From the NCBI GenBank assembly GCA_031556375.1, contig JAVBTA010000003.1:103319-167318 (forward strand): a stretch of DNA of 64,000 bases. The letters are read 5' to 3'. This DNA comes from Bacteroidales bacterium (GTDB lineage Bacteria > Bacteroidota > Bacteroidia > Bacteroidales > Azobacteroidaceae). Of this stretch, positions 6,730 to 29,820 are shown one piece after another. How positions within the stretch are numbered: the first letter of the stretch is position 1; every line of letters starts with the position of its first letter. Made by a program: the position numbers and the translations under genes. The notes under the pieces were generated by a model, which worked only from the letters and a program-made list of their open reading frames with translations, was not told the origin of the DNA and did no database searches.

Positions 6730-8829
6730 TTATAGGAATGAACTGTCTGACAATCCTGTATTTACAGCAATTTTATTAACAGTTGCTTTCATTTCCATTC
6801 CCATTGCTTTCTGAACAAAGGTATGAGGGAAAAGAACACCGTTAACCGGCTTATAATCTGAATATTCCGTAACCTGTTGCATTTCTCCCTGAGGTGTATC
6901 CGCAGTCATTGTTTTTTGAACCAATAATCCGCTGTTAACATCAAAGAAACAACTCATTACCTTTGATGGAGCGTATTCAACATCAACCATGTAAGCATCC
7001 GATTTCTTCACTTTTTTAATGCCCTTAACACTCATCTTATAACCATTTTGAGCATAATACATTTCCGGACATACATAAGAGCCCATTTTTGCAGCTAAGA
7101 GTTCGTTTCCATCAGTAAATTCCTTGCTTCCACCCATACCCGATGTAATCAGTTTAACTCCGTTGAAGATTATTTTTTGAACAGACATACCGCCTGTTGA
7201 GAGTTCTGTAACTGTCATTCCCGGTTTTTTGAACATCTGAAGCATATCAATTTTTTGTCCCATCATAAACATCTCTGCATTAATGGTATAATCGTTAATT
7301 TTTTCAATCTCAGCAGCTCCACCAATTGCTTTTACATAATTATTGATGATTTGCTCAGCTGTAACTTCAACCTTGTCATTTTTAGCATCTTCCACTATCG
7401 GATTGGCATTTACATCATAAAACTGAACTGTTTTATTTGCTGCAAATTGTTTCAGGCCTTCTGCATGAGATTTATCACCTGTCACAACGACATAGGCATT
7501 GTTCGGTTTAAGGTATTTCTTTGCAGCAGCCTGAACATCAGCAACCGTAACGGCATGCAAACGCTTCAGATAATTTTTATAATAATCTTTCGGTAAATTA
7601 TATTTGTCAATGTTCAGTGCAAATTCAGCTAATGTACTTGGATTTTCCAACATTCGTCCGAAATTTCCGGCAAGATAACTTTTTGCTCCGTTCAATTCTT
7701 TTTCAGTAACAGGAGTTTCAATCATCTTCTTCATTTCATAATCAATTTGATATATAGCACTATCGGTAGCCGCTCCTTTTACTTGTCCGGCTCCACCACG
7801 CCCCGCAGATAAATAGAAACGGGAAACCAATTCATTGCTATTCAGATAGCTATATACTCCATAAGTGTAACTGTGTGTCTCTCTCAAATTCTGGAAAAGA
7901 CGGCTACCCATTCCTTGTCCGAATACATGCATTAATACTTCAACAACCTCTTCATCAGAAGAACCCACCTTCAATTGAATAGGATATGTAATGTCGATTG
8001 CTGATTGTACAGAACTTGGTTTATCGATCATCGAAACTGTAGTCTCTTTCGGAGTCTGAGGAATAGTATATTTAGTTACAGGAACATTCTTCTTCGCCCA
8101 CTTTCCGAAATATTTTTCCGCATTGGCCTTAGCTTCACTTTCGGAAATATCACCGATAATAACTAAGCGGGCTACATTCGGTGCGAAATAAGTATTGTAG
8201 TATTTTTCCAAATCAGCAACTTTAATATTATCATAGCTGGCTTCTGTTTCCAGTTCTCCGTTAGGAAATCCTTTTCCATAGGCCAAAGCCGAAGCCAAAC
8301 GATTATTCATGCTGCTGATATCATCTCCGATAGAAGATAAAGCTGTTTTTTGTTTTTTTACATTCAAATCCAGTTCACTTTCATTGAAAACCGGCTCCAA
8401 AAGAATTTCTGAGAAAATAGTAAGCATTTGATCTTCATATTTTTTCAAACAGCTGGCATACCCTCCACGGCTGTACGATGAAATTCTAGCCCCGATAAGG
8501 TCTATACTTTTGTTAAGCTCTTCTTTTGTCTGTTTTTTAGTCGCAGTTCCTATTACTGAAGTAAAAATATCGGACAAACCTGCTTTATCTCCTTCTAACT
8601 CAGGTTTAATGTCCAGAGACAATGAATAACGAACGATCGGCACAGTATTGTCTTCTACTACGAAAACCTTCAAACCATTAGGCAGAGTGAAGATTTTAGC
8701 ATCTTTAATCTGGATTTCTTTGGCTGGTGCTGCTGACGGGCGGATACTACGATCAATCTCTTGTGCATTCAGTACTATTGCACAAAGCAGAAAGATGAAT
8801 ATATTTAAAATCTTTTTCATATTTTTCAA
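6730..8829 (-). CDS. M16-family (pitrilysin-like) peptidase, non-catalytic partner subunit, secreted
   Basis: Signal peptide MKNMKKILNIFIFLLCAIVLNAQ. M16-like domains but no HxxEH zinc motif. Tandem with the catalytic M16 gene immediately upstream on the same strand. Confidence 0.65.
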   Translation of the reverse strand: MKNMKKILNIFIFLLCAIVLNAQEIDRSIRPSAAPAKEIQIKDAKIFTLPNGLKVFVVEDNTVPIVRYSLSLDIKPELEGDKAGLSDIFTSVIGTATKKQTKEELNKSIDLIGARISSYSRGGYASCLKKYEDQMLTIFSEILLEPVFNESELDLNVKKQKTALSSIGDDISSMNNRLASALAYGKGFPNGELETEASYDNIKVADLEKYYNTYFAPNVARLVIIGDISESEAKANAEKYFGKWAKKNVPVTKYTIPQTPKETTVSMIDKPSSVQSAIDITYPIQLKVGSSDEEVVEVLMHVFGQGMGSRLFQNLRETHSYTYGVYSYLNSNELVSRFYLSAGRGGAGQVKGAATDSAIYQIDYEMKKMIETPVTEKELNGAKSYLAGNFGRMLENPSTLAEFALNIDKYNLPKDYYKNYLKRLHAVTVADVQAAAKKYLKPNNAYVVVTGDKSHAEGLKQFAANKTVQFYDVNANPIVEDAKNDKVEVTAEQIINNYVKAIGGAAEIEKINDYTINAEMFMMGQKIDMLQMFKKPGMTVTELSTGGMSVQKIIFNGVKLITSGMGGSKEFTDGNELLAAKMGSYVCPEMYYAQNGYKMSVKGIKKVKKSDAYMVDVEYAPSKVMSCFFDVNSGLLVQKTMTADTPQGEMQQVTEYSDYKPVNGVLFPHTFVQKAMGMEMKATVNKIAVNTGLSDSSFL

Positions 8830-8848
8830 TTTATTCTGTTTTACTTAC

Positions 8849-10189
8849 TTATTTCTTTTCTGATTCAGGAAGATAGTACAAAACCACACGATTATTTTTT
8901 GCAAAATATTTTTTAGCAACATTCATCAAATCCTCACGTGTAATATTACTATAAAAGTCCAGTTCACGATTGATTCTTCCGGCATCTTTAAAATAGGTAT
9001 AGTTATTTGCCAGGTATTCAGCAACTTTTCTTATACTATTCAAATCGGAAGCAATGCTGTATTCTTTAGCTGCCATAGCCATTTGGAACTCATCTTCAGC
9101 AACCAGTTCGTTTTGAACTTTTTCAATCTCAATATTGAAAGCTTCTTCTAGTTTCTCCGGAGTCACTCCGCCATTTACAATACCAATTACGTATGTCAAT
9201 CCCGGATCTTCCTGTGCGTAAGGATATACCACTGCCTGTAATGCGACTCCTTTATCAGTAATATTCGTTTTCATACGGGAACTGGCTCCTCCTGATAAAA
9301 TCTGGGAAAGAATTTCAAGAGCATGAGCATCTTTTGTTCCCATAGCCGGTGCATGATAACCCATAAATACTCCAGGCAACTGGATCTTATCATAAACAAT
9401 ATCACGAATTTCCGCTGTTTGAGCCGGTTCCATGTCTTTTTGCGGACGATTGAAAGATTTTGTTCCTTTAGGGATTCCCGCGAAATATTTATTAATCCAT
9501 TCTTTTGTTTGTTTTTCATCAAAATCTCCGGAAATAACCATTACCGCATTATTCGGAACATAATATGTCTTGTAGAAATTATAAATATCTTCATCAGTAG
9601 CATTACGGATATGCTCCGGATAACCAAGAACCGACCACCTGTAGGGGTGGACTGTAAATGCTTTTTCTCCCAGTTTCTCTGTAGCAAGACCATACGGTTG
9701 ACTTTCCATTGTTTGTTTACGTTCTTCAATTACAACTCCTTTTTGAGTAGCGATGCCAATAGAATCAATCTTCGCATGTAACATACGTTCAGATTCCATC
9801 CATAAAGCTAATTCCAGTTGATTAGAAGGCATCAGTTCAAAATAATAGGTACGATCCGGAGAAGTATTGGCATTCAATGCCCCACCATTTTCTTCTACAA
9901 TTTTCATATACTCTCCACGACCAATATTTTGAGAACCTTCAAACATCAAATGTTCAAAAAAATGGGCAAAACCGGTTTTGTCCGGAGTTTCATTCTTGGT
10001 TCCCACATGATACATAATAGAAACAACCACGTTGGGAGTAGATGCATCTTTATGCAGAATCACATGTAACCCATTGCTCAGATCATATTCGGAAAACTCG
10101 ATGTTCACCTTTTGATCATCTTTTTCTTTAGCATTGACCGTAAAACTGCACCAGACAGCAATAGCCAACAATACGACTAACTTTTTCAT
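8849..10189 (-). CDS. M16-family zinc peptidase, catalytic subunit, secreted
   Basis: Signal peptide. The inverted zinc-binding motif HFFEHLMFEG (HxxEH) is present. Confidence 0.8.
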   Translation of the reverse strand: MKKLVVLLAIAVWCSFTVNAKEKDDQKVNIEFSEYDLSNGLHVILHKDASTPNVVVSIMYHVGTKNETPDKTGFAHFFEHLMFEGSQNIGRGEYMKIVEENGGALNANTSPDRTYYFELMPSNQLELALWMESERMLHAKIDSIGIATQKGVVIEERKQTMESQPYGLATEKLGEKAFTVHPYRWSVLGYPEHIRNATDEDIYNFYKTYYVPNNAVMVISGDFDEKQTKEWINKYFAGIPKGTKSFNRPQKDMEPAQTAEIRDIVYDKIQLPGVFMGYHAPAMGTKDAHALEILSQILSGGASSRMKTNITDKGVALQAVVYPYAQEDPGLTYVIGIVNGGVTPEKLEEAFNIEIEKVQNELVAEDEFQMAMAAKEYSIASDLNSIRKVAEYLANNYTYFKDAGRINRELDFYSNITREDLMNVAKKYFAKNNRVVLYYLPESEKK

Positions 10190-15132: not shown

Positions 15133-18100
15133 ATGGGTATGAGAAAACAATTACATTTAATCCGGTTTATGATTTTGTCGTTCGCTGTGGTATGGTGTAT
15201 ACCATCATGGGCACAAATCAGCGAAGGGGGAATTCCTCCCAGTTTTGGGTTGCCCATATTGAGGCAATCAGCACAACCGTATCAAACTGCTATTAAGTTC
15301 AATGTTAATGAATTGAAAGCAGAAGACGCTAAAAATGAAGCGGAAGGAGCACCAATTCGTACGGCAATTATTATTCCATCTGATTTAAGTATTGAAAAAG
15401 ACGGCAGATGGACTGATCTGGCTGACGGTCGACGTATTTGGCAATTGGAGATTAGTGCTCCTGATGCTATAGCTCTTTTACTTTATTATGATGAATTTTA
15501 TATTCCTAAAGGAGGTAAGCTATTCATATACAATAAAGAAAAGAATCATATTCTTGGAGCCTATACAGAAAAGACCAATATAAAAGGCGGAAAATTTGCC
15601 ACAGAGTTTGTAGCCGGCGATAAGTTAGTCTTAGAGTACGTTTCTCCTTCAGAAACATTAACAATGACCGATGAGTCCGGAAAGACCTTACCGGTAATAG
15701 CTAAAGGTAATCCCCGCATCAAGATCTCAGGTATAGCATACGGATATAATCATCTGGATGTTTATCATATAAAAAATGAAAGACCTCAATTAAGAGTGGG
15801 AGAATCCGGTAGTTGTATGATCAACATCAATTGTCCTGAAGGCGACAATTGGCAGCTACAAAAAAGAGGAGTAGCAAAAAGCGTAACTCCAATCGGATCT
15901 GGAGCTTATCTTTGTTCCGGAACAATTCTTAACAATACCGTCCAGGATTTTGATCCTCTTTTCTTAACTGCAAGTCATTGCTTTTATACCAGCGATGCCA
16001 CTGCCAAGTGTACGGATTTTTCTCAGGTCATTTATTATTTCAATTATGAAAGCTTTAATTGTATGACGACTTATCCGGATCAAACACGCACAATGGTAGG
16101 GGCCGAGCTATTGGTGGAGCTACCGACTATAGGTGGTATAGCCGGAACAGGAGGTACCGACGGTGGATTATTACGATTACTGAATCCAATCCCTCCGGAT
16201 TATAACGTTTTTTATAATGGTTGGGATAACCGGAACATTGCTCCTACAAGCGGAGTAGGAATCCACCACCCTGCAGGAGATATAAAGAAAATATCAACAT
16301 ATACGACTACTGCAGGACAAACAACATGGACAGGAGGCCCCTCGAACCAGTGGTGGAATGTGACATGGGCTAGTACTGTAAGTGGAAAAAGTTTAACTGA
16401 AGGTGGTTCATCAGGCTCTCCATTGTTTAACCAAAATAAAAGGGTTGTTGGTTGTCTGACAGGAGGGCCTTCACAACAGGGTGTGCCTAAATGTGAACAA
16501 CCGGTATCCACGCATGTAGCCTATTACGGAAAGTTATCCTACCATTGGGACGGAGATAATACAGGCTCTGGAATTGTCGACCAAACAAAAAAAATGAAAG
16601 ATTATCTTGATCCGAATAACTCAGGGGCAAATTTTATAGATGGAAAATACAACTCTTCGGCTTCGACAAATGCAATTTTTGAAGTAGATAAAAGTGATAT
16701 AATTGTGTTTGAATCTGTAAATTTCAGAGATGGATCTTCTGGTGCAAATACATGGGAGTGGACATTTGAAGGAGGGACACCAAGTACTTTTAATGGAAAA
16801 CAACCTCCTGTTATTACATACAATGCTCCGAGTCCCACCGGAGGATTTACAGCTAAGTTGGTTGTCAATAAGGGAACTGCAAATGAAAGTAGTATGGAAG
16901 TGAAAATCCAGGTAAAAGAATTAGGAGATAACCCACAGACTCCCGTTGCACGTTTCTCTCTTGAAGAAATCCTAACCTTATCTGAAGGATTTGACACATC
17001 AATACCTCCTACAGGCTGGAATCTCGATAAACCAGGAGCAAGCACCAATCAATTCATATTGGCAAACATGACTAATGCTGCATTAAACTTTAATACGATC
17101 GATCCTAATAGTCAATATTCGGCTCTTGTCCAACATGATGATACTGAGGTTGTAGATACATGGTTGAAATCACCGGCATATACATTCTCTGACCCAAATA
17201 CATGGCTTGAATTTTATGGATTCTATGCTACTGCATATATAGATAATGACAAGTTTTTATCCGTATCGGTTTCTACTGATGGAGGAAATAACTGGACTGA
17301 AATCTGGACAAACGCAGATTTAAGCGGCGACGGTGATTTATCATGGCACAAACATAAAGTGGACCTGTCAACTTATGTTGGTCAAAGTATTAGATTAGGA
17401 TTTAGATATTATGGACAAGGAGGATACTTTGGCGGATTCGACGGTATAAAAATAGTCACTCCTTCTGACCCAGCCCAGGCAAAAACAATCAATGTAGGTG
17501 ACTACATTACTCCTGTCGAGTGGAGTTCAGGCCCCCCGATTCTTTATGAATGGACATTTGAAGGAGGAACACCAGCAACATCAACAGAACAAAATCCGGG
17601 TACTATTCGATATCTGCAACCGGGTACATTCGACATCACACTAAAAGTGAAAAATTATAGGGGTGAAGATATACATACCTTTACTGATGCAGTAACTGTA
17701 ATTCTGCATACACCTGAAACTGATTTTATAAGTCAGGGATATAACCGTACCGATTTTGCCCGCGCAATTCCGGTAAATGTCCCGGTAAAGTTTACCGATC
17801 TGTCGAAAAACTATCCTGATCAATGGAACTGGACTTTTACAGGAGGTACACCTACTACTTCCACAACACAAAATCCAATCGTAACCTACTCAACTGAAGG
17901 CATCAGCAATGTTAGTCTTACTGCGAAAAATATTACAGGAGAAAACACTGCAACAAAAAATAGTTATATACATGCAGGTTATTTAACCCACGATATTTGG
18001 AATATAAGTCAGGGGGAGACAACAACCAACACATGGAGGGCTACAGCTACAAACTATATTACCGGATCAAATGCAGGTACAATTGTTCCATATAGCGAGT

Positions 18101-20934
18101 TCGCCGAATTATTCGACGCACCCTTAGCATCCGGAGTGTTACGCAAAATTCAGATTTCTTTCTGGACAGGAGCAGCTACTAATGCAGGAAACCTGACTCT
18201 TAAGTTATACAATGTCGGAGCTGATGGTTTTCCTTCAACTACTTTCCACTCACAAACATTTCCTATTTCAGGTATCAACACATCAGGATATACCACTATA
18301 ACTCTTTCAAAAGAAGTTTCTATCAATGATAAGTTCTATGTTGCGATAGCTGGATTTGCCGCCACTACCAGCCAATTGGTAGCAGTTAGGGCCTCCAGCT
18401 TAAGGGCGCCTGAAGACAATCGGGTTTGTTTCTATAGTTTATATCATGATGTTATATTAAATCGCCCCTGGATTAGTACAGCCAGTCAGTACAACGTAGG
18501 ATTATCTATGAATATCGTTCCGGAATTTACCTACACTTACTATGAACTTAGTGGCGATAAAGAAGTATACCGTAAGAATATAGACAACACTATCGGAACA
18601 GCATCTGTAAGTACTAATGCAAGCTGGACGGCAACCACTAATGCAAGCTGGATTACGATCAGCAATGGTTCAGGCACCGGTAACGGCACTTTTACTTACA
18701 CAGTCAGTCAAAACGATGGAATGCTAAGAGATGGTGTCATAACTATTTCGTGCATGGGAAATCAAGAAACAATCCTTGTTGTACAGGCCGGACCAAACCC
18801 AATAAATCTTACGGCAACTCTTACAACTGAATCCGCAGTCGGTTTATCATGGGATGCTCCGGCTATCAAAGATATCTACGACAATATCGAAGGACATACA
18901 AGTTTTACCCTTGATTCTCCGGGTAGTGCAGGTTGGTCGTATATCGACGCCGATGGTGGTACTCCCGTAGCCATTTCATATGATGGAGAAACGTTTCCGA
19001 ATGTCAACATTCCAAGTTCATTCATGGTATACACGCCTGGAGAAACAACGCCTCCGATTACAGATGCACTGTTTGCACCTCATAGCGGTAACAAGTTCCT
19101 CGCATGTCCAAAGAATATTGCCAATACAGGAGCAAATAACGACTGGATAATAAGTCCGGAATTAGGTTTTGACAGGAATTTCAAATTTGTATTCTGGGCC
19201 AAATCCATTCATCCAAGTTATGCCGAACATATCCGTGTTGCATACTCAACCGCAGGAAAAACGGTCAGTGATTTTACGAATGTTGTTACATCCGGAAGTT
19301 ATGTAAGTGTTCCTAGTGCATGGACTAAATATGAATTTACAATACCGGCAAATGCCAAATATGTTGCATTGAATTGTGTATCAAACTATGCATTTATGCT
19401 TATGGTAGATGATATTTATATCGGTATTGGGGATGCTCCGGCAGGTATTTATCCAGAGATGGCAATTACCAGCGGATTATTGAAATTTATGGTTGACGGA
19501 AAAATTGAGATAGTTCAACCCGAATTTAACGCACTATTAAATAAAATGAAGGAAGCTGTTGTACGACAAGAGATCCCTGCGACTCTTACAAATGAGACAA
19601 CAGGTGAAATCATTCAATTAAATACTGAAAAAATTTCGGGTAATGCTGCTCCTATAAGCCAAGGAGGAGCATTGATGATTACGCAACAAAATTCGTTTAT
19701 TGGTATTCAAACCAATACAGGTATAAAATACAATATTTACCGTGATGGAAGCTTAATTGCCAACGGATTGTCAACAACTAACTATACAGACTTATATACA
19801 CCAGGTGGAAATGTGTGTTATACTGTAACTGCTGTATATAATGACGACAGCAGACTGGAAACAACAGAATCCAACGAAGTATGCCTGGCGGCTCCTTCCG
19901 CAATGATAGTCCAGGCTTTAGATGCAAGCAGACAACGATTCACGGACAATCCGACTTTCAATTTCACGATTACCGGTAATTTGATGGGATTACATACGAT
20001 TGACGAAGTCAGAACTTGGGTTACAGCAAGCACTACTGCCAATTATTATTCACCGGTAGGTGCTTATCCGATTATCCCTTCCGTAAATAATCCGCAACCT
20101 CAATATGTATTCCGGTTTATTAATGGAATATTGACTATTACAGCTCCTCCTATTCCTGTAATCCTGGAACAACCTAAGGATGCCGTATTATGTGAAGGAA
20201 GCAACTATACATTATCGGTAAAAACGCAGGGAGAAGAGCTGAATTACCAATGGTATAAGGGCAATAGCAAGATTATGGGTGTTAATTCCTCCAGTCTGGA
20301 ATTGAAAAACATAACCAGGAATGATTACGATACTTACTATGTCGTAGTAAGCAATGAGAGAGGAACTACATATAGCGAAAAGGCAAGGATATATGTTGTC
20401 GAACCTCTGGGTAGTATTTCTTACAAGGAATTTCCGGATGTTGCTGTCACAGGTTCTACTTACTCATTGAAATTGAATGGTTATTCCAACGTTACCAAAT
20501 ACACATGGAGTTTCAGCAAAGACAATGTTGTCAGCTTTGAACCTGAATCAGGCGCAAGGAATGAAACAAAAATAACATTCAGCGCTACAGCAATCGGAGT
20601 TGGAACAATAAAAGTAGACCTGGAACATACTTGCGGTACTTATTCTCATAGTAGAGATGTAAATGTTAAATATCCGACCGGAATTGATGATGTAAACAAT
20701 TCTATTGTAAAAATTTATCCTAATCCGGTAAGTAACATTCTGAATATATCTTACAATCAACAGCCGATCAAATCTGTAATTGTAAATGATATCAGCGGAC
20801 GAACTATTGAGCGTTATGATAATGTTGGATCCTACCAATTAGCTATCCAGGCTTCAAAATGGACAAAAGGTACTTATATTATCATTATTGAGACAAATAC
20901 TGGAAGAACCGTTCAAAAAGTTATCAAAAAATAG
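15133..20934 (+). CDS. Giant T9SS-secreted multidomain S1 (trypsin-like) serine protease/adhesin with PKD, cleaved-adhesin, BACON and Ig-like domains
   Basis: Signal peptide (MILSFAVVWCIPSWAQ). S1 His motif LTASHC. S1 Ser motif TEGGSSGSPLF. Three W-x-W-T-F-x-G-G-T-P PKD-like repeats. Two jelly-roll domains match the gingipain K2-type 'cleaved adhesin' pattern (SYIDADGGTP, NDWIISPELGF, YAEHIRVAYSTAGKTVSDFTN, DDIYIG). A BACON-like segment (ASWITISNGSGTGNGTFTYTVSQNDGMLRDGVITIS...VVQAG). An Ig-like domain (LCEGSNYTLSVKT...YQWYKGNS...DYDTYYVVVSNERG). A C-terminal T9SS type-A sorting domain (KIYPNPVSNILNISY...GTYIIIIETNTGRTVQKVIKK). Confidence 0.8.
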   Translation: MGMRKQLHLIRFMILSFAVVWCIPSWAQISEGGIPPSFGLPILRQSAQPYQTAIKFNVNELKAEDAKNEAEGAPIRTAIIIPSDLSIEKDGRWTDLADGRRIWQLEISAPDAIALLLYYDEFYIPKGGKLFIYNKEKNHILGAYTEKTNIKGGKFATEFVAGDKLVLEYVSPSETLTMTDESGKTLPVIAKGNPRIKISGIAYGYNHLDVYHIKNERPQLRVGESGSCMININCPEGDNWQLQKRGVAKSVTPIGSGAYLCSGTILNNTVQDFDPLFLTASHCFYTSDATAKCTDFSQVIYYFNYESFNCMTTYPDQTRTMVGAELLVELPTIGGIAGTGGTDGGLLRLLNPIPPDYNVFYNGWDNRNIAPTSGVGIHHPAGDIKKISTYTTTAGQTTWTGGPSNQWWNVTWASTVSGKSLTEGGSSGSPLFNQNKRVVGCLTGGPSQQGVPKCEQPVSTHVAYYGKLSYHWDGDNTGSGIVDQTKKMKDYLDPNNSGANFIDGKYNSSASTNAIFEVDKSDIIVFESVNFRDGSSGANTWEWTFEGGTPSTFNGKQPPVITYNAPSPTGGFTAKLVVNKGTANESSMEVKIQVKELGDNPQTPVARFSLEEILTLSEGFDTSIPPTGWNLDKPGASTNQFILANMTNAALNFNTIDPNSQYSALVQHDDTEVVDTWLKSPAYTFSDPNTWLEFYGFYATAYIDNDKFLSVSVSTDGGNNWTEIWTNADLSGDGDLSWHKHKVDLSTYVGQSIRLGFRYYGQGGYFGGFDGIKIVTPSDPAQAKTINVGDYITPVEWSSGPPILYEWTFEGGTPATSTEQNPGTIRYLQPGTFDITLKVKNYRGEDIHTFTDAVTVILHTPETDFISQGYNRTDFARAIPVNVPVKFTDLSKNYPDQWNWTFTGGTPTTSTTQNPIVTYSTEGISNVSLTAKNITGENTATKNSYIHAGYLTHDIWNISQGETTTNTWRATATNYITGSNAGTIVPYSEFAELFDAPLASGVLRKIQISFWTGAATNAGNLTLKLYNVGADGFPSTTFHSQTFPISGINTSGYTTITLSKEVSINDKFYVAIAGFAATTSQLVAVRASSLRAPEDNRVCFYSLYHDVILNRPWISTASQYNVGLSMNIVPEFTYTYYELSGDKEVYRKNIDNTIGTASVSTNASWTATTNASWITISNGSGTGNGTFTYTVSQNDGMLRDGVITISCMGNQETILVVQAGPNPINLTATLTTESAVGLSWDAPAIKDIYDNIEGHTSFTLDSPGSAGWSYIDADGGTPVAISYDGETFPNVNIPSSFMVYTPGETTPPITDALFAPHSGNKFLACPKNIANTGANNDWIISPELGFDRNFKFVFWAKSIHPSYAEHIRVAYSTAGKTVSDFTNVVTSGSYVSVPSAWTKYEFTIPANAKYVALNCVSNYAFMLMVDDIYIGIGDAPAGIYPEMAITSGLLKFMVDGKIEIVQPEFNALLNKMKEAVVRQEIPATLTNETTGEIIQLNTEKISGNAAPISQGGALMITQQNSFIGIQTNTGIKYNIYRDGSLIANGLSTTNYTDLYTPGGNVCYTVTAVYNDDSRLETTESNEVCLAAPSAMIVQALDASRQRFTDNPTFNFTITGNLMGLHTIDEVRTWVTASTTANYYSPVGAYPIIPSVNNPQPQYVFRFINGILTITAPPIPVILEQPKDAVLCEGSNYTLSVKTQGEELNYQWYKGNSKIMGVNSSSLELKNITRNDYDTYYVVVSNERGTTYSEKARIYVVEPLGSISYKEFPDVAVTGSTYSLKLNGYSNVTKYTWSFSKDNVVSFEPESGARNETKITFSATAIGVGTIKVDLEHTCGTYSHSRDVNVKYPTGIDDVNNSIVKIYPNPVSNILNISYNQQPIKSVIVNDISGRTIERYDNVGSYQLAIQASKWTKGTYIIIIETNTGRTVQKVIKK

Positions 20935-20961: not shown

Positions 20962-21001
20962 AAGCGGTGATTCTGAAAAGTTTCACCGCTTTTCATTTTT
21001 A
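20962..21001 (+). terminator. Rho-independent terminator after the protease gene
   Basis: AGCGGTGA-ttctgaaaagtt-TCACCGCT followed by TTTCATTTTT. Confidence 0.65.
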
Positions 21002-21081: not shown

Positions 21082-21089
21082 TAGCTTTG
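21082..21089 (+). promoter_or_regulatory. Bacteroidetes-type -7 promoter element (TAnnTTTG) for the glm-mal operon
   Basis: TAGCTTTG lies about 33 nt upstream of the glmS ATG at 21122. Confidence 0.45.
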
Positions 21090-21121: not shown

Positions 21122-21529
21122 ATGAAAATAAAAACCATTGTTACCGGAGTTATCGGAGCCGATGTACATGCTGTTGGTAACAAAATTTTAGCTTATGCCC
21201 TGGAAGATGCCGGTTTTAATGTTGTGAATCTGGGAGTTATGGTTTCCCAGGAAGAGTTTATCAACGCCGTTCTGGAAACAAATGCCAGTGCAATTGTGGT
21301 CTCCTCTCTTTACGGACACGGGGAAATCGATTGTAATGGACTGCGTGATAAATGCAATGAAGCCGGTTTAAAAGATATAGTACTTCTTGTCGGAGGAAAT
21401 CTGGTAGTTGGGAAACAAGACTTCGCAGATGTTGAAAAGCGTTTTACAGCTATGGGATTCACCAAAGCATACCCTCCGGGAACCTCATTAGAAACAACAA
21501 TTGAAGACCTGAATAAATTTCTAAGTTAA
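21122..21529 (+). CDS. glmS: Glutamate (methylaspartate) mutase S chain, B12-binding subunit
   Basis: [50 protein letters not shown]...[26 protein letters not shown]...[15 protein letters not shown] matches what I recall of clostridial GlmS/MutS. It has the DxHxxG cobalamin-binding motif (ADVHAVG). Confidence 0.9.
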
Positions 21530-21539
21530 CAAATCCGTT

Positions 21540-22922
21540 ATGATTTACTTAACGGCCGATTTTGGAAGCACCTATACGAAATTGACAGCCATTGATGCCA
21601 AAGAATCCTGTATTCTGGCGACTTCCAATGCTTTCACCACCATTGAAACAAATATCATGGCCGGGTTTCATACTGCTTTATCAAAACTGGAAGAAAAATT
21701 TGGGAAACTACACTATGACAAAATTCTTTGTTGTAGCAGTGCAGGCGGGGGGCTGAAAATGGTAGCTCTCGGACTGGTGCCCGAACTCACAGCCAAAGCT
21801 GCTAAACTGGCAGCATCCAGTGCCGGAGCAAAAGTCGTTAAGACCTATTCTTTTGAAATATCACAATCTGAACAAAATGAGATTTATGAGATAAACCCGG
21901 ACGTAGTACTCTTGTGCGGAGGTACCGACGGAGGAAATAAAGAGGTAATCATAGCCAATGCCCAAAGATTATCTGCCATAGATCGTAATTTTTCAATCAT
22001 TGTTGCCGGAAATAAAAGCGCATCATACGAATTGGACGATATCCTGAAAGCTTCAGGAAAAGATTATGTAATCACAGACAATGTCATGCCTGTATTCAAC
22101 AGCCTGAATATTGAACCGGCCAAACAATGTATACGTGAAGTATTTATCCGCAAAATTATAGATGCCAAAGGTCTCTCAGAAGTACAACAAATGGCTTCAT
22201 CGGAGATCATCCCTACTCCACTGGCTGTAATGAATGCCTGCGAACTACTCAGTAAAGGTACGAAAAACAATGAGGGTATCGGAGAATTAATGGCTATCGA
22301 TCTCGGAGGAGCAACTACCGATGTTTATTCCATGGCTGCCGGAAAACCAATGGCAGAAAACGTACTTATCAAAGGACTGCCGGAACCTTTCAGTAAACGT
22401 ACCGTAGAAGGTGATCTGGGAATGCGATATAGTCTATCTTCCCTTGCTGAAGAACTCGACCTGGAAAATCTTGAGAAAGAAATCGGAGCAGAACCTCAGG
22501 AAATCAATCGCTGGGTTGAACGCTGCGTCTCCGATCCATCCATCATTGCCCATCTCGAAAGTAAAGAATTAAAGATAGAGGAAGTATTGGCTAAAAGTGC
22601 TATCGAACTGGCTGTTGAAAGACATTGTGGAATCATGGAAAGCGCTTATTCTCCGATGGGAATCATTTTTTCCATTACAGGAAAAGACCTGACAGAAATA
22701 CCGTATATAATTGGTATTGGCGGAATCCTGGTTAACAATCCACATCCGGAAAAATTACTTGAAGGTGCCAGGTTCAGTTTAGCAAAAAGCAACTCTATGA
22801 GACCGAAAAATCCGAAGTTCTTACTGGACAAAGAATATATTTTCGCCTCTATGGGATTACTCAGCTCTATAGATCCGGATTTGGCACTCTGTTTAATGAA
22901 AAAAGAAATAAATATACAATGA
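21540..22922 (+). CDS. glmL: Glutamate mutase-associated protein GlmL/MutL (ASKHA-fold, putative mutase chaperone/reactivase)
   Basis: N-terminus MIYLTADFGSTYTKLTAID. About 460 aa. It sits between the S and E mutase subunits, as in clostridial mutS-mutL-mutE operons. Confidence 0.8.
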   Translation: MIYLTADFGSTYTKLTAIDAKESCILATSNAFTTIETNIMAGFHTALSKLEEKFGKLHYDKILCCSSAGGGLKMVALGLVPELTAKAAKLAASSAGAKVVKTYSFEISQSEQNEIYEINPDVVLLCGGTDGGNKEVIIANAQRLSAIDRNFSIIVAGNKSASYELDDILKASGKDYVITDNVMPVFNSLNIEPAKQCIREVFIRKIIDAKGLSEVQQMASSEIIPTPLAVMNACELLSKGTKNNEGIGELMAIDLGGATTDVYSMAAGKPMAENVLIKGLPEPFSKRTVEGDLGMRYSLSSLAEELDLENLEKEIGAEPQEINRWVERCVSDPSIIAHLESKELKIEEVLAKSAIELAVERHCGIMESAYSPMGIIFSITGKDLTEIPYIIGIGGILVNNPHPEKLLEGARFSLAKSNSMRPKNPKFLLDKEYIFASMGLLSSIDPDLALCLMKKEINIQ

Positions 22923-22949: not shown

Positions 22950-24410
22950 ATGGAAATTAAGAACAAAAAATTATCGATGGATGATTTCCTTGCGGAACGC
23001 AAAGAAGTTCTTGAACAATGGCCCACCGGTAAGGATGTAAATCTAGAAGAAGCCATTAAATACCAGAAGGAAATACCTGCGGAAAAACGCTTTGGCGACA
23101 AGTTAGCCCACGCAAAAGAATACGGGCTGACCCTCATTCAACCCCGTGCAGGTGTTGCTCTTTATGATGAACACATCAAGTTACTCCAATACCTTGAAAC
23201 AGAAGGAGAAGCTGATCTTTTACCTACCACTATCGACAGTTATACCCGTCTCAACCGGTATAATGAAGCTCAAGTCGGTATTGAAAAGAGTAAGGAAAGC
23301 GGACGATCTATGCTCAATGGGTTTCCGGCCGTTAACTACGGTGTGGGAATTTGCCGTACAGTTACATCTTCTCTCAAAAGTCCGGTACAAGTGCGTCACG
23401 GGACTCCGGATGCGCGTTTGCTGACTGAAATCACTATTGCGGGAGGATTTACTTCATACGAAGGGGGAGGTATTTCGTATAATATTCCCTATTCGAAGAA
23501 TCATTCTCTTGAAAAAACAATTGCTCATTGGCAATATGCCGACCGTTTGATCGGTTATTATGAAGAAAATGGAGTTTCTATCAATAGAGAGCCATTCGGA
23601 CCGTTGACAGGGACACTTGTTCCTCCTTGTATTTCCAACTCAGTGGCTATAATAGAAGCAATACTAGCTGCAACACAAGGGGTTAAAGACGTTACTGTAG
23701 GTTACGGCCAATGCGGGAACCTGATCCAGGATGTCGCTGCGATTCGTTCTCTGGAACGTGAAACCCGCAGATATCTGGATCAATTCGGTTTTCACGATGT
23801 ACGTGTAACCACTGTATTCCACCAATGGATGGGAGGATTTCCACAAGACGAATCCAAATCATTCGCAGTAATCTCCTGGGGTGCAGCAGCCGCTGTTCTG
23901 GCAAAAGCAACCAAAGTGATCGTAAAAACGCCACATGAAGCAATGGGGGTCCCTACGAAAGAAGCAAACGCAGAAGGATTGAGAGCTTCCAAACAGTTGG
24001 CATCTATGTTGCAAGTGCAGAGTTTTGTCGATATACCTGCAGTTGTGGCTGAAGCTAGTATTATCAATCAGGAAGTTGAAAGCATCATTAATAAGGTAAT
24101 CGAATTAGGAAAAGGAGACATCGCAATCGGTACTGTTGCTGCGTTTGAAGCTGGTGTTATAGATATTCCCTTTGCACCTAGCAAATATAACGCTGGAAAA
24201 ATTATGCCTGCCCGTGACAACTCCGGAGCCGTACGTTTCCTGGATTCCGGGAATATTCCATTAACAAACGATCTAAAAGCATTCCATCGTGGAAAACTGG
24301 AAGAACGTGCTAAATATGAAAACCGTCCGGTAAGTTTCCAAATGGTAATCGACGACGTATATGCCATCGGAAAAGGATTTTTGGTAGGACGTCCACATGG
24401 AGTAAAATAA
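22950..24410 (+). CDS. glmE: Glutamate (methylaspartate) mutase E chain
   Basis: [46 protein letters not shown]...[20 protein letters not shown]...[15 protein letters not shown] closely parallels clostridial GlmE as I recall it. 486 aa. Confidence 0.9.
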
Positions 24411-24423: not shown

Positions 24424-25668
24424 ATGAAAATTATAGATGTTGTTTGTGCCCAAGGCAAAACAGGTTTTTTCTTTGATGATCAGAAAGCCATTAAAGCGGG
24501 AGCTAATCACGATGGAGCCTTCTACGAAGGCCAACCTATGACAGAAGGTTTTACTTCAGTAAGACAATCCGGAGAATCCATTTCCGTATTATTTATCCTT
24601 GAAAACGGAATCGTTGCACATGGTGACTGTGCTGCAGTGCAATATTCCGGAGCAGGCGGACGCGACCCATTGTTCCTTGCTAAAGATTTTATTCCGGTAA
24701 TCGAAAACGAAATAGCTCCTTTATATAAAGGAACGGAAATCACTACATTCCGTGAAATGGCTGATTTAATTGACAAAAAAATCAATTCAACAACAGGCAA
24801 AGCATATCACACTGCAATCCGTTACGGAGTTACCCAGGCTTGCCTCGATGCAGTAGCTAAAAGCAAATCCAAATTGATGGCTCAGATTATTGCCGAAGAA
24901 TATGGAACATGTATTTCAAATGCCATTATTCCTATTTTTTCTCAATCAGGAGACGACCGTTATTTGAATGCCGATAAAATGATCATGAAAGGCGCAGATG
25001 TCCTTCCTCATGCCCTTTTCAACCATGTTGAAGAAAAAACAGGATTAAAAGGAGAAAAAATACAGGCATATATAGAATGGTTGCGTGACCGTATTTTGAA
25101 ATTCAAACCATATGCAGGATACAATCCTGTCATTCATATTGACGTTTATGGCACGTTAGGGCCGGTTTTCAATAATGATTTTGAGAAAATAGCCGATTAT
25201 ATAGGAGATCTGGCAAACCGGGCTAAACCGTTCCATTTACGTGTTGAAGGACCTGTCGATATGGGAGAAAAAGATGCTCAGATCGATGGTTTACGTAAGA
25301 TCCGCGAATTCATGGAGAAAAAGGGAATTACCGCAGAAATCGTAGCTGATGAATGGTGTAATACTTTCGAAGATATCCGGGATTTTACGACACATAAAGC
25401 CGGTCACATGGCACAGATTAAAACTCCCGATCTTGGAGGTATCAATAATTCTATAGAAGCTGTACTTTACTGTAAAGCAAACGGTATGGGCGCCTATTTA
25501 GGAGGTACCTGTAATGAAACCAACCGTTCTGCCGAAGTTTGTGCCCATATCGCAATGGCAACCTCCCCTGTACAATATCTGGCAAAACCGGGTATGGGTG
25601 TGGATGAAGGTTATATGATCGTTTTCAATGAAATGCAACGTATATTAGCGTTAAAAAATAAACTATAA
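24424..25668 (+). CDS. mal: Methylaspartate ammonia-lyase (beta-methylaspartase)
   Basis: MKIIDVVCAQGKTGFFFDDQKAIKAGANHDG...TEGFTSVRQSGESISVLFILENGIVAHGDCAAVQYSGAGGRDPLFLAKDFIPVIENEIAP is almost colinear with clostridial MAL as I recall it. 414 aa. Confidence 0.9.
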   Translation: MKIIDVVCAQGKTGFFFDDQKAIKAGANHDGAFYEGQPMTEGFTSVRQSGESISVLFILENGIVAHGDCAAVQYSGAGGRDPLFLAKDFIPVIENEIAPLYKGTEITTFREMADLIDKKINSTTGKAYHTAIRYGVTQACLDAVAKSKSKLMAQIIAEEYGTCISNAIIPIFSQSGDDRYLNADKMIMKGADVLPHALFNHVEEKTGLKGEKIQAYIEWLRDRILKFKPYAGYNPVIHIDVYGTLGPVFNNDFEKIADYIGDLANRAKPFHLRVEGPVDMGEKDAQIDGLRKIREFMEKKGITAEIVADEWCNTFEDIRDFTTHKAGHMAQIKTPDLGGINNSIEAVLYCKANGMGAYLGGTCNETNRSAEVCAHIAMATSPVQYLAKPGMGVDEGYMIVFNEMQRILALKNKL

Positions 25669-25670: not shown

Positions 25671-27041
25671 ATGGACGAAATAAGAGTACTTTCCGCTACA
25701 GCGATCCTGGGATATGGTTTCCCTATGGAATCGTTTGTCGAAGGAATGAAACGCAAACCCCACGTAATTGCAGTAGACGCCGGGTCGACTGATCCTGGGC
25801 CTTATTATCTTGGTGCAGGAAAATCATTTACCGATTATAATTCCGTAAAACGTGACCTCGAAATCATGATTCCAGCGGCCCTGGAAGCCAATATTCCGGT
25901 AATGATCGGTTCTGCCGGTGGCTCCGGAGGTAGACCTCACGTTGAATTTAACCTGCAAATTATCAGAGAAATAGCCAAAGAAAAAAATCTTTCTTTCAAA
26001 CTGGCCGTTATCGAAGCTGAACTTGACAAAGAGCTGGTTAGAGGTAAATTAAAAAAAGGTGAAATTTCTCCTTTATATCCGGCACCGGAACTTACCGAAG
26101 ATGAGCTGGATAAGACTGTCCGTATCGTTGCTCAAATGGGAGAAGAACCATTCATCAAAGCTTTGGATGAAAAAGCAGATGTAATTTTGGCAGGACGTGC
26201 TTATGATCCTTGCGTATTCTCAGCTCTGGCTATTAAACACGGTTTTGATCGCGGATTGGCCATCCATATGGGAAAAATCCTCGAATGTGCTTCTATTGCT
26301 GCTGTTCCGGGAAGCGGAAGCGACTGTATGTTCGGTTACTTGCACAAAGAAGACTTCGTTCTCGAGCCACTCTCTCCTATCCGTAAATGTACAACATTAT
26401 CTGTTGCAGCTCATACGCTTTACGAAAAGAGTAATCCGTATATCCTGCCCGGACCTGGTGGCGCTATCAATTTGCATCAATCCAAGTTTGAGCAGATTTC
26501 AGACAATATGGTAAAAGTTTCCGGAAGCCGTTTCGAACCGACAGAAGATTACTTTGTCAAGTTAGAAGGTGTCAAGAAGGTAGGATGCCGAACAATCTCT
26601 ATTGCGGCAACTAAAGATCCGGTAATGATTGAAAAAATCGAAACCATCGTCCAAAGCGTAAAAGATCGTGTACGCAACAATTTCGAAGCTTATGGAATCA
26701 AAGATTTCTTTCTGGATTTCAAGATTTACGGTAAAAACGGTACAATGGGATTATTTCCCGGAATAGAGAATAAAGTGGCCCACGAATTGTGTATTGTTAT
26801 CGAGGCCGTCGCTCCCACTCAGGATCAAGCAGATACAATTTGCGGATTTGCCCGTAGTACCATGTTGCACTTCGGATATGAAGGACGTATATCTACTGCC
26901 GGAAACCTCGCATTTCCATTTTCTCCATCGGATTGTAAAGTCGGTGAAATCTACGAATTCAGCATTTATCATTTGATGAAAGTAGAAGATCCTGCGGAAC
27001 ATTTTCCGATTACTTATATTAACTTTGTAGAAGGAAAATAA
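25671..27041 (+). CDS. AtuA/DUF1446-like protein of unknown function, embedded in the methylaspartate operon
   Basis: 456 aa. Its size and its partnership with a downstream 105-aa DUF4387-like gene match the AtuA-family/DUF4387 gene pair, recalled from annotation patterns. No catalytic motif could be assigned by eye. The 2-nt gap to mal implies co-translation in the operon. Confidence 0.5.
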   Translation: MDEIRVLSATAILGYGFPMESFVEGMKRKPHVIAVDAGSTDPGPYYLGAGKSFTDYNSVKRDLEIMIPAALEANIPVMIGSAGGSGGRPHVEFNLQIIREIAKEKNLSFKLAVIEAELDKELVRGKLKKGEISPLYPAPELTEDELDKTVRIVAQMGEEPFIKALDEKADVILAGRAYDPCVFSALAIKHGFDRGLAIHMGKILECASIAAVPGSGSDCMFGYLHKEDFVLEPLSPIRKCTTLSVAAHTLYEKSNPYILPGPGGAINLHQSKFEQISDNMVKVSGSRFEPTEDYFVKLEGVKKVGCRTISIAATKDPVMIEKIETIVQSVKDRVRNNFEAYGIKDFFLDFKIYGKNGTMGLFPGIENKVAHELCIVIEAVAPTQDQADTICGFARSTMLHFGYEGRISTAGNLAFPFSPSDCKVGEIYEFSIYHLMKVEDPAEHFPITYINFVEGK

Positions 27042-27053
27042 AACAGTAATATT

Positions 27054-27371
27054 ATGGAATATAATTTAAGAGATGTTGCTTCTGTGATACGGAGTAAAAA
27101 CTCAGGTCCGTATGAATTGACTTTCGATATTATTTTCAAGGATTTTGAAATGTATGAGAAAGCAAAAGCTGCTAAAATAATGCATGAAAAAGTTTTTGCA
27201 AGCTTGTATAATATCCCTGAGTCGAATATAATGAAACTGGTGTATTTTGACCCGGCAAAAGCCATTAAAATCACCATTGTTCGCCCGATTCCTTCAGGAT
27301 CTCTCGGAGAAACGGATGTTTACGGAGCGCAACAACATGCACCTTTAATGGGTTTTACATTTAATTTATAA
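27054..27371 (+). CDS. DUF4387-like small protein, partner of the AtuA-like protein
   Basis: 105 aa, lying 12 nt after the AtuA-like gene. The assignment rests on size and context and is tentative. Confidence 0.45.
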   Translation: MEYNLRDVASVIRSKNSGPYELTFDIIFKDFEMYEKAKAAKIMHEKVFASLYNIPESNIMKLVYFDPAKAIKITIVRPIPSGSLGETDVYGAQQHAPLMGFTFNL

Positions 27372-27383
27372 TATACCGTTCCG

Positions 27384-28334
27384 ATGCGTAATATCATACA
27401 GGAATATTCGGTTTTTTCGCAGTATTTTGCCCCAAGCGACAGAAATAGTTTGCTGTTTCTGGGCGAACAGATCTCGCAACGCCATATGTATTACGATGAT
27501 AAACTGATCGGAATTGTCGGTGACGCCGGTTCCGGGAAATCTTCTTTGATCAAAGGTATGTTTCCCGGACTCGAGTTGTCAAATGATGATGACACTCTGA
27601 ATCCACGCAAGATCATGCAGGTCAGGGATTTATTTGAAGATATCCATGATGCGACAACTTATCATATCGATACCCGTTTCCAAGTCGCTTTTACACAAAT
27701 GCATGAAATCGTGATGTTTGTGAATCATGTATTAGAGAAAGGAAGACGGGTAGTTATCGAACATTTCGACATGCTTTATCCTGCCCTGGGTATCAATGCT
27801 GACCTGATTATCGGTATCGGAGAAGAGATTATCGTGACCCGTCCAAGTATGTTCGGCCCTTTACCTAAAAGCATTCACGAAATAGTAAGTAAATCGCTCC
27901 TTTACCGGAAAATGGCTCATACAGTGGAAGATATAACCATCATTATACTTATGGATGAGTTCGGCATTACCGATGATATGTTCTTTAATGCAGATATGCG
28001 GAACGGATTTGTACTTAAATTTTTCAAAGAGGTAGATATTGACATCGACCTGTTGTACAAAAGAGTCCGGGAAACATTAAATAAAAACCTGATAATCAAC
28101 TATTACGATGAAAATAACATCCTGATCGGAGATCGTTTAGTTCCTTGTAAAGGTCCCAGAATACACATACGGAATACTTCAGAAGTAAAAGAATTCAGCT
28201 TCGTTAAAAAATTAGTAAAAGACTATAAAACAGACACTTATTGTCTAATAGGAAGTTTCGCCAACGATCCGGATATCGACATCAGCAATTGGAACACCCT
28301 CCATTTCCTAAAAAGAAGAGATATAGAGTTATAA
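27384..28334 (+). CDS. P-loop (Walker A) protein of unknown function
   Basis: Contains GIVGDAGSGKSSLIKG, a GxxGxGKS P-loop that resembles the HPr-kinase/PEPCK-like type. 316 aa. It is in the operon with a 12-nt spacer. Confidence 0.5.
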   Translation: MRNIIQEYSVFSQYFAPSDRNSLLFLGEQISQRHMYYDDKLIGIVGDAGSGKSSLIKGMFPGLELSNDDDTLNPRKIMQVRDLFEDIHDATTYHIDTRFQVAFTQMHEIVMFVNHVLEKGRRVVIEHFDMLYPALGINADLIIGIGEEIIVTRPSMFGPLPKSIHEIVSKSLLYRKMAHTVEDITIIILMDEFGITDDMFFNADMRNGFVLKFFKEVDIDIDLLYKRVRETLNKNLIINYYDENNILIGDRLVPCKGPRIHIRNTSEVKEFSFVKKLVKDYKTDTYCLIGSFANDPDIDISNWNTLHFLKRRDIEL

Positions 28335-28397: not shown

Positions 28398-29240
28398 ATG
28401 CGAACTATACAATCAAAATATATAACAGATCTTGTAGAAAATCTCTGTATTAAAGCAAATTGTGAATTATCTGATGATATCTACAGTTTCTTTTGCTCCA
28501 GTTGCCAGAAAGAAAAATCTCCTTTAGGCCGGGAAATCCTCTCTACACTGATCGAAAATGCCGATATAGCCCGCCAGGGCAATGATCCCATCTGCCAGGA
28601 TACCGGAATGACTGTTGTTTTCGTAACCATGGGACAGGATATACATGTTGAAGGTGGATTTATCGAAGATGCAATTAATGAGGGAGTTAGAAGAGGATAT
28701 GAAAAAGGATATCTACGTAAATCGGTTGTTAGTGATCCTATCAACCGGGTAAATACTAAAGACAACACTCCTGCAGTTATTCATTACGAAATCGTTCCTG
28801 GGGATCAATTTCATATTACTGTAGCTCCCAAAGGTTTCGGAAGTGAAAATATGAGCCAATTGCGTATGCTTAAGCCAAGCCAGGGATTGCAAGGCATCAA
28901 AGATTTTGTTATTCAGACGGTATCGGAAGCTGGAGCCAATCCTTGTCCTCCGATTATTGTCGGCGTAGGGATCGGTGGCACCATGGAAAAAAGCGCTTTA
29001 TTGAGCAAAAAAGCATTATTACGCCCAATTGGTCAGAAAAATGAAAATCCTCAATTGACAGCATTGGAAGCTGAACTTTTAGATGCAATCAATGCATTGG
29101 GAATCGGTCCTGCCGGATTTGGAGGAACGACGACAGCCATGAGTGTTAACATTCTCACTTATGCGACACATATCGCAGGACTTCCGGTTTCTGTGAATAT
29201 AGGTTGCCACGTAACCCGTCACGCCGACGGAGAATTATAA
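28398..29240 (+). CDS. Fe-S class I fumarate/tartrate-type hydratase alpha subunit, presumed mesaconase alpha
   Basis: ICQDTGMTVVFVTMGQDIHVEGG carries the CQDTG signature of the FumA/TtdA N-terminal catalytic region. 280 aa. Confidence 0.8.
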   Translation: MRTIQSKYITDLVENLCIKANCELSDDIYSFFCSSCQKEKSPLGREILSTLIENADIARQGNDPICQDTGMTVVFVTMGQDIHVEGGFIEDAINEGVRRGYEKGYLRKSVVSDPINRVNTKDNTPAVIHYEIVPGDQFHITVAPKGFGSENMSQLRMLKPSQGLQGIKDFVIQTVSEAGANPCPPIIVGVGIGGTMEKSALLSKKALLRPIGQKNENPQLTALEAELLDAINALGIGPAGFGGTTTAMSVNILTYATHIAGLPVSVNIGCHVTRHADGEL

Positions 29241-29259: not shown

Positions 29260-29820
29260 ATGGAAAAAAGAATTGAAATAACAACTCCGTTTACGGATGA
29301 AATAATAAAAGGATTGAAAGCAGGTGATATGGTTTACCTATCCGGAACTATTTATACAGCCAGAGATGCTGCACATAAAAAAATGTGTGAGCTACTGGAG
29401 CAAGGCCAAGCTATGCCATTCGACTTTACAGGATCCGCCATATACTACGCCGGACCATGTCCTGCAAAACCGGGCAAGCCAATTGGTTCTGTCGGACCGA
29501 CTACTAGCGGACGTATGGATCTTTATGCTCCGACCCTTATGAAAGAAGGACTCAAAGTAATGATCGGTAAGGGATTACGGAATAAAGATGTCGTTGATGC
29601 GATTGTCAAGTATTCTGGTGTTTATTTTGCAGCCATCGGTGGCGCTGCCGCCCTGATGGGACAAAGTGTGGAAAATGCAGAAATCATCGCATTCGACGAG
29701 TTAGGTACCGAGGCTGTGCGTAAATTACGAGTAAAGAACCTTCCCGTAATCGTTGCAATCGATTGTGAAGGACGGAATATCTACGAAGAAGGTCGAAAAG
29801 AGTTTGCAGTCAAAGTTTAA
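29260..29820 (+). CDS. Fe-S class I fumarate/tartrate-type hydratase beta subunit, presumed mesaconase beta
   Basis: [21 protein letters not shown]...[34 protein letters not shown] matches the TtdB/FumA C-terminal beta-domain family. 186 aa. Confidence 0.8.

Follow-up and report, generated by a model that had tools for sequence, protein, structure and literature searches.

Introduction

The fate of citramalate in bacteria that possess glutamate mutase and methylaspartase and lack a citrate-lyase-type enzyme was left open in 2015 by Kronen and Berg, who recorded that mal is followed by a DUF1446 gene in both Enterobacteriaceae and Dictyoglomus, described for E. coli O157 a glm-mal-fumD cluster with the DUF1446 gene after mal and with classical citramalate lyase activity undetectable, and could trace no such activity to citrate lyase, isocitrate lyase or methylisocitrate lyase (PMC4682846). 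Structures are now available (PDB 9ERQ and 9EVF) whose chains A and B bear the deposited names "Citramalate lyase, subunit A (cmlA)" and "B (cmlB)", and a preprint employs the Raoultella planticola CmlAB for direct cleavage of citramalate to pyruvate and acetate, reporting that an E. coli acetyl-CoA auxotroph grows on mesaconate in a Cml-dependent manner and citing no source for Cml (bioRxiv 10.64898/2026.01.16.699985). Here we analyse a nine-gene operon of the methylaspartate pathway in a 64-kb stretch of DNA from Bacteroidales bacterium (contig JAVBTA010000003.1); "the window" denotes this whole stretch, and coordinates are given in window positions unless a different locus is named.

Three consecutive genes of this operon encode an AtuA/DUF1446-like protein of 456 amino acids (aa), a DUF4387 protein of 105 aa and a P-loop protein of 316 aa. 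A previous sequence-only reading had proposed that the trio constitutes a non-orthologous citramalate lyase supplying an undescribed step. That proposal holds in part, in that the AtuA-like and DUF4387 proteins correspond to CmlAB, as the PDB names, the preprint and the mutual exclusivity of the two lyase types indicate, whilst the P-loop protein is not part of the enzyme. Nor is the step new, as 9ERQ and 9EVF exist and the association of the genes was noted in 2015 (PMC4682846). We consider it probable that the nine genes form a complete methylaspartate operon, with CmlAB as the lyase and the third protein as a separate component inherited with glmSLE-mal.

Identification of a probable citramalate lyase

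The operon comprises nine co-directional genes on the + strand, glmS-glmL-glmE-mal-cmlA-cmlB-P-loop gene-mesA-mesB, as read from the open reading frame (ORF) listing together with Pfam and NCBIfam scans, and the spacers calculated from the coordinates are, in order, 10, 27, 13, 2, 12, 12, 63 and 19 nucleotides (nt). The gene order and the range of spacers (2-63 nt) given in the sequence-only reading are thus borne out by the coordinates and by both family databases, and the three ORFs singled out there are all present, on the + strand and at the lengths given above. The same nine-gene operon recurs with other flanks in Dysgonomonas, Alistipes and dozens of further genomes, and its ORFs are therefore real genes and not chance.

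The gene cmlA (25671-27041, + strand) lies directly after mal and is itself followed directly, across a 12-nt spacer, by cmlB (27054-27371, + strand). The 456-aa product aligns over its full length with the solved large subunit (PDB 9ERQ_A/9EVF; phmmer E 2.8e-152, 511 bits, residues 4-442 against 5-440), with 54.2% identity over 439 columns, and the 105-aa product aligns with the small subunit (PDB 9ERQ_B; E 4.7e-29, residues 2-104 against 2-104) with 47.6% identity. The smaller protein also matches PF14330 (142 bits), and the larger scores 79.3 bits against Pfam AtuA (PF07287; gathering threshold 22.8) in a partial match of which the best stretch covers residues 59-208. The AtuA-family protein encoded after mal in E. 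coli shares 92% identity with the PDB large subunit, and the solved enzyme therefore derives from the same type of cluster. Judged by these alignments, the 456-aa and 105-aa proteins are CmlAB, a predicted two-subunit citramalate lyase that replaces CitDEF here, and the window cmlAB is a Bacteroidota member of an enzyme already solved, the activity of which was assigned earlier by others. For the CmlA subfamily, the view that no activity is established among AtuA-family proteins is accordingly out of date. No gene for a CitE, CitF or acyl carrier protein (ACP) homologue had been noticed in the window, and this is upheld: tblastn with Pelosinus CitD, CitE, CitF and CitC as queries was empty at E<=1e-3 over the 64 kb, and none of the four was found among the Pfam-scanned ORFs.

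A route can then be proposed in which GlmS/GlmE, with GlmL, would convert glutamate to 3-methylaspartate, Mal would deaminate this to mesaconate, MesAB would hydrate mesaconate to (S)-citramalate, and CmlAB would act directly on free (S)-citramalate, yielding pyruvate and acetate and dispensing with the acyl-carrier subunit, prosthetic group and acetylation cycle of the CitDEF-type enzyme. The mesaconase role of MesA in this scheme follows from the operon context and from the earlier work on the pathway (PMC4682846).

Exchange of lyase genes across related loci

A scan for homologues of the P-loop protein in one genome per GTDB species gave 563 confirmed cases, from which the best 80 loci were taken with 10-kb flanks and the pathway proteins mapped in them by tblastn; the sample is thus anchored on the P-loop gene, limited to +/-10 kb and biased to that extent. 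The P-loop gene stands beside cmlAB in 65 of the 80 loci, mostly in the full nine-gene order, with median gaps of 50 nt from cmlB to the P-loop gene and 10 nt from the P-loop gene to mesA. Five loci (three from Pelosinus, one from a Bacillota metagenome-assembled genome (MAG) and one from a deltaproteobacterial MAG) carry it with citD-citE-citF-citC and without cmlAB, and two carry it with mal and neither lyase in reach. The flanks of three others hold no glm, mal or lyase gene, two of these lying between rodA and pyrG and the third having mesAB downstream; four have a short upstream flank with mesAB downstream, and one is a short and uninformative contig. In none of the 80 loci do cmlA and citF occur together, in line with the anti-occurrence with citE/citF that the sequence-only reading had put forward as a test. 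Within this sample, cmlAB and citDEF are alternative occupants of one pathway slot.

The arrangements themselves are instructive as to the third gene. The Pelosinus order, confirmed by Pfam, is gntR, glmS-L-E-mal, P-loop, citD, citE, citF, citC, a class II fumarase-like gene, mesA, mesB, and the order glmS-L-E-mal-P-loop-citD-citE-citF-citC is also present in one Bacillota MAG and in Thermosinus carboxydivorans, which was found outside the 80 loci. The deltaproteobacterial MAG reads mal-P-loop-citC-citD-citE-citF, an Oscillospiraceae MAG has glmS-L-E-mal-P-loop only, one Bacillota MAG has the P-loop gene upstream of glmS, and Clostridium sediminicola reads gntR-glmSLE-mal-cmlA-cmlB-P-loop. The cluster of E. 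coli EC42405, glmS-glmL-glmE-mal-AtuA-DUF4387-gltP-fumD-cobO, contains cmlAB and no P-loop homologue. The P-loop gene therefore tracks the glmSLE-mal module and not the type of lyase; because it occurs in CitDEF operons without cmlAB and is missing from enterobacterial cmlAB clusters, its product is neither a lyase subunit nor a citramalate-activating partner.

Some further features of these loci may be recorded. A 314-aa hypothetical protein encoded upstream of E. coli glmS was considered as a P-loop homologue and rejected (BLASTP E 0.21). Between mal and mesAB no citX or citG was seen in Pelosinus (locus L081, 11056-16478) or Thermosinus (L086, 10992-16071), and the gene inserted before mesAB encodes a class II fumarase-like lyase in the former and malic enzyme in the latter. 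In several Proteiniphilum MAGs the operon is split by a gap of ~2.3-3.3 kb that separates cmlB from the P-loop gene. The gap in L042 is occupied by a gene for an M13 peptidase in the opposite orientation (7777-9825, - strand; Pfam) and that in L050 by an ORF matching the L042 gene in size and orientation (6816-8867, - strand), and gaps of similar size are present in L040 and L043. In Alistipes, the transhydrogenase genes pntA/pntB follow directly after the operon on the same strand (L003, 12399-15855). A mal-like match was found in 758 of 5,426 complete E. coli genomes, and RefSeq labels the E. coli cmlAB genes 'acyclic terpene utilization AtuA family protein' and 'DUF4387 domain-containing protein'. 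GlmL is 32% identical between E. coli and the window and 47% identical between Pelosinus and the window, the corresponding values for GlmS, GlmE and Mal being 54-60% and 62-67%; by this measure GlmL diverges much faster than the neighbouring operon proteins.

Sequence and predicted structure of the P-loop protein

The P-loop gene (27384-28334, + strand) encodes a 316-aa protein without a Pfam or NCBIfam match at E<=0.001, in which the Walker A motif GDAGSGKSS, already picked out from the sequence, occupies residues 46-54. In sequence and profile searches of the PDB the protein resembles ABC transporters in its Walker A motif alone, and this resemblance accounts for the misleading names "lantibiotic ABC transporter" and "GTPase SAR1". 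A first AlphaFold2 model, from 19 close homologues, was poor in the N-domain (predicted local distance difference test score (pLDDT) 59.5) and was replaced by a second built from 76 sequences of Bacteroidota and Firmicutes (pLDDT 84.1, predicted template modelling score 0.77). In this model, with which Foldseek agrees, the N-domain (~residues 1-160) is predicted to have a TsaE/YjeE-like P-loop ATPase fold and the C-domain (~161-300) a fold resembling the ThrRS/AlaRS editing (AlaX) domain, and TsaBDE complexes are among the structure-search matches. Scores against the corresponding sequence families lie below their cutoffs, i.e. 13.6 bits for Pfam TsaE (PF02367; cutoff 26.6) and 12.2 bits for Pfam tRNA_SAD (cutoff 24), and a profile search of the PDB reached TsaE chains at E 0.4-1. 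No tsaB or tsaD gene is present near the operon in the window, and a motif search for TsaE genes in the fetched loci found none.

Across the 76 sequences, which come from several phyla, 53 positions are invariant. They include G46, G49, G51, K52 and S53 of the Walker A motif, D69 in an N-D-D-D loop that follows it, H94, D96, R98 and F99, and R122, E126, H127 and F128; in the C-domain they include H179 and E182, then C255, R259 and H261, and beyond these N264 and T265. The NKxD guanine-specificity motif is absent from the N-domain sequence, so that ATP rather than GTP is the likely nucleotide. The HXXXH and CXGXH motifs define the editing-domain superfamily (PMC12003907). The first reads here H179-T-V-E182-D183, i.e. 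HxxE[DE] (the +4 residue being Asp in 68 of the 76 sequences and Glu in 8), and the second C255-K-G257-P-R259-I-H261, i.e. CxGxxxH, with a two-residue insertion. As both motifs are altered, the C-domain is regarded as a divergent relative and not as a canonical AlaX; its conserved His/Glu/Cys/His cluster may serve to bind either a metal or a substrate. Members of the family are acidic, the median isoelectric point (pI) being 5.8 (C-domain 5.4).

A search anchored on the Bacteroidota protein matched more than 1,300 (~1,400) protein clusters at 90% identity, and searches anchored on Negativicutes and Clostridia members of the family matched ~4,000 and ~3,700 clusters, respectively. At 50% clustering the family has merely 220 representatives, mostly fragments, among 1.84 billion proteins, and is therefore narrow and compact. 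Our literature search found no papers on this family, nor any linking it, or tRNA editing, to methylaspartate.

Other genes and candidate signals of the operon

The remaining genes of the operon are readily assigned. They are glmS, for the B12-binding subunit S of glutamate (methylaspartate) mutase (21122-21529, + strand; NF002612, 211 bits; TIGR01501, 193 bits); glmL/mutL, for the glutamate mutase accessory protein (21540-22922, + strand; PF13941, 563 bits; NF040745, 635 bits); glmE, for the catalytic subunit E (22950-24410, + strand; PF06368, 743 bits; TIGR01503, 770 bits); and mal, for 3-methylaspartate ammonia-lyase (24424-25668, + strand; PF05034 and PF07476; TIGR01502, 585 bits). Downstream of the P-loop gene lie mesA and mesB, for the alpha and beta parts of a class I fumarase-type hydratase (mesaconase), at 28398-29240 (+ strand; PF05681, 396 bits; NF004885, 418 bits) and 29260-29820 (+ strand; PF05683, 199 bits; NF005310, 275 bits). 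The mechanically called glmS ORF opens at a GTG at 21050 and has 159 aa, of which the NCBIfam match begins only at residue 25; for this reason the in-frame ATG at 21122, which gives a GlmS of 135 aa, is most likely the true start. The GlmS proteins of Dysgonomonas and Alistipes are called at 134-136 aa.

Directly upstream, 15133-20934 encodes a 1933-aa protein with a trypsin-like peptidase domain, PKD, BACON and Ig domains and a type IX secretion system C-terminal sorting domain. This protein is a candidate secreted protease that would supply amino-acid fermentation; its linkage to the operon is not kept in the Dysgonomonas or Alistipes loci. Direct reading of the sequence reveals, at 20964-20999 (+ strand), a GC-rich hairpin (gcggtga...tcaccgc) with a T-run, which probably terminates the gene for the 1933-aa protein and so would mark the upstream boundary of the operon, and, 33 nt upstream of the ATG at 21122, a candidate -7 promoter element, TAGCTTTG (21082-21089, + strand). 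The latter fits the Bacteroidetes -7 consensus, TAnnTTTG, and is offered as a lead only. A promoter and terminator scan of the window flagged neither the hairpin nor TAGCTTTG, and its counts were at chance (31 against 29.9 expected and 10 against 8.7, respectively), the sigma-70 model that it uses being unsuited to Bacteroidota. A convergent rmuC lies downstream of the operon, and elsewhere the window contains housekeeping genes usual for Bacteroidota.

Discussion

The 316-aa protein may, we suggest tentatively, represent a new class of pathway-dedicated accessory factor, in which a TsaE-type ATPase and a re-purposed tRNA-editing-type domain would have been recruited together to B12-dependent glutamate fermentation. 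Two readings of such a factor are open, an ATP-driven partner of GlmL that resets or reloads glutamate mutase and a proofreading hydrolase directed against 3-methylaspartate. We lean, weakly, towards the first, i.e. an ATP-dependent accessory or maintenance factor for the glutamate mutase/GlmL module that would act with or on GlmL, as suggested by the inheritance of the gene with glmSLE-mal and by the predicted TsaE-type ATPase domain. The analogy is with TsaE, an ATPase that docks on the TsaB-TsaD pair, itself of ASKHA fold, and hydrolyses ATP to reset it. A relation to the ASKHA-fold hydantoinases is presumed for GlmL, going by the TIGR01319 and PF13941 descriptions (similarity to hydantoinase A), and a sequence search for a solved homologue of GlmL gave none.

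Several observations weigh against a mutase-accessory role. The P-loop gene never adjoins glmL, sitting instead after mal, after cmlB or before mesA; it is absent from E. coli, and the protein is therefore not universally required; and in two Bacteroidota MAGs it stands alone. The assignment of two domains, moreover, derives from a predicted structure, and the editing-site-like residues that the protein retains favour hydrolysis or ligand binding over a pure chaperone role. The two lone genes (L022, 10001-10936, and L029, 10001-10948) are flanked by mreC-mrdA-rodA on one side and pyrG-yidC on the other, genes of the methylaspartate pathway being absent within 10 kb, and may indicate a role beyond the operon or, alternatively, rearranged or partial genomes.

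The second reading, of a pathway-coupled hydrolase that would strip mischarged tRNA, or a different aminoacyl ester or adenylate, of 3-methylaspartate and would thereby protect translation, we judge to be unlikely. The compound is a beta-branched, non-proteinogenic analogue of both Asp and Thr that accumulates during fermentation. Against this reading, the motifs that define editing domains are altered to HxxE[DE] and CxGxxxH (PMC12003907), the median pI values of 5.8 for the family and 5.4 for its C-domain are atypical of a free-standing tRNA binder, hydrolytic editing requires no ATPase domain, enterobacteria have the pathway without the P-loop gene, and literature on mischarging with 3-methylaspartate was not found. 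An aspartyl-tRNA synthetase gene of bacterial type is located at 4850-6646, ~15 kb upstream of the operon; it is mentioned because this hypothesis invokes mischarging, and its position is probably a coincidence.

A direct role in handling B12 is doubtful. The protein would in that case be a non-orthologous ATP:cob(I)alamin adenosyltransferase, or a MeaB-like gate loading adenosylcobalamin onto GlmS, and two features of its distribution are in keeping with this: the gene co-occurs with a B12-dependent module, and the E. coli cluster, which lacks it, ends in cobO, the product of which may serve such a role there, whereas the loci with the P-loop gene have no cobO homologue within 10 kb. However, the cobO contrast depends on a single type of cluster without the P-loop gene, the N-domain has no NKxD motif, and the protein has no sequence or fold likeness to CobA/CobO, PduO or G3E GTPases, its top folds being TsaE and editing domains.

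That the three proteins form one system, in which the P-loop protein would activate citramalate (or the lyase) with ATP and the AtuA-like/DUF4387 pair would carry out the cleavage, is highly improbable. The idea draws on the adjacency of the genes with 12-nt spacers, an arrangement that persists, at the median gap of 50 nt, in 65 of the 80 loci; it is largely refuted by the comparative data, as the P-loop gene is also found in citDEF-citC operons without cmlAB and with mal alone and is missing from the E. coli cmlAB clusters. Furthermore, cmlAB of Raoultella alone supports citramalate cleavage in E. coli (bioRxiv 10.64898/2026.01.16.699985).

The assignment of CmlAB as the lyase also has points that count against it. 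The functional label comes from the names of the PDB deposits and from one preprint that uses the enzyme, our literature search found no primary paper on CmlAB enzymology (and no papers for "DUF4387"), identity to the solved subunits is moderate, at only 54% and 48%, and a CitDEF-type lyase could exist elsewhere in the genome, beyond the window. It is nevertheless very unlikely that the pair acts otherwise on mesaconate or citramalate and that cleavage is left to such an enzyme, a reading for which this identity and a view of the genome limited to 64 kb can be adduced, as the match to CmlA/CmlB is full-length, the operon place directly after mal is that seen in Enterobacteria, none of the related loci combines cmlAB with citDEF, and with CmlAB the operon accounts for the whole route by which glutamate yields pyruvate and acetate.

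With CmlAB as the predicted lyase, the gap in the fate of citramalate that was left in 2015 (PMC4682846) would be closed. Among the window and the related loci, CmlAB is the dominant solution in Bacteroidota (Dysgonomonas, Parabacteroides, Alistipes, Prevotella and Porphyromonas), and Clostridia, Synergistaceae and Desulfovibrionaceae have it as well, which matters for predictions of how gut and oral anaerobes ferment glutamate and histidine. In the records examined, the labels of the cmlAB genes continue to be "DUF1446", "AtuA family" or "DUF4387". The new part is the P-loop/editing-like protein, a conserved component tied to a B12 radical enzyme pathway and belonging to no Pfam family, the function of which could reveal a new step in the maintenance of glutamate mutase or a new form of metabolic proofreading. 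If it is indeed a partner of GlmL, an unrecognised component would be added to a pathway studied since the 1950s; if it proves to be a proofreading factor, it would, as far as we know, be the first of trans-editing type encoded inside a catabolic operon.

Comparison with known systems

The closest described system is the CmlAB of Raoultella and other Enterobacteriaceae. As in the window, it consists of two subunits, of the AtuA/DUF1446 and DUF4387 families, with which the 456-aa and 105-aa proteins align over their full lengths, and its genes come right after mal in a glmS-glmL-glmE-mal cluster that also encodes a class I fumarase/mesaconase. The window differs in phylum (Bacteroidota) and, at 54% and 48% identity, in sequence; its mesaconase is split into MesA and MesB where that of E. 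coli is the fused FumD, it lacks the gltP and cobO of the E. coli cluster, and it has the extra P-loop gene between cmlB and mesA. The CitDEF-type lyase of Clostridium tetanomorphum holds the same position in the pathway and catalyses the same net reaction (PMC4682846), but is a homologue of citrate lyase with ACP, beta and alpha subunits plus CitC/X/G. It has no homology to CmlAB, which is without an ACP subunit and cleaves free citramalate directly (bioRxiv 10.64898/2026.01.16.699985); in Pelosinus and Thermosinus, CitDEF-type genes fill the operon slot that cmlAB holds in the window.

Pseudomonas AtuA, of acyclic terpene utilisation, shares with the window CmlA a match to PF07287 above the gathering threshold. 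The match of CmlA is however partial (residues 59-208, for a model of 437 positions), and its setting is glutamate fermentation rather than an atu cluster; CmlA is thus a distinct subfamily, to which a function has now been assigned. The 316-aa protein, finally, can be set beside two families on the basis of its predicted folds. Relative to TsaE/YjeE/YdiB, the ATPase of the bacterial t6A machinery TsaBDE, its sequence similarity is not significant, and it is set apart by a fused second domain, by its place in a catabolic operon and by the invariant N-D-D-D loop after Walker A, whilst from AlaX and related editing domains it differs in its altered motifs (PMC12003907), its acidity and its fusion to an ATPase.

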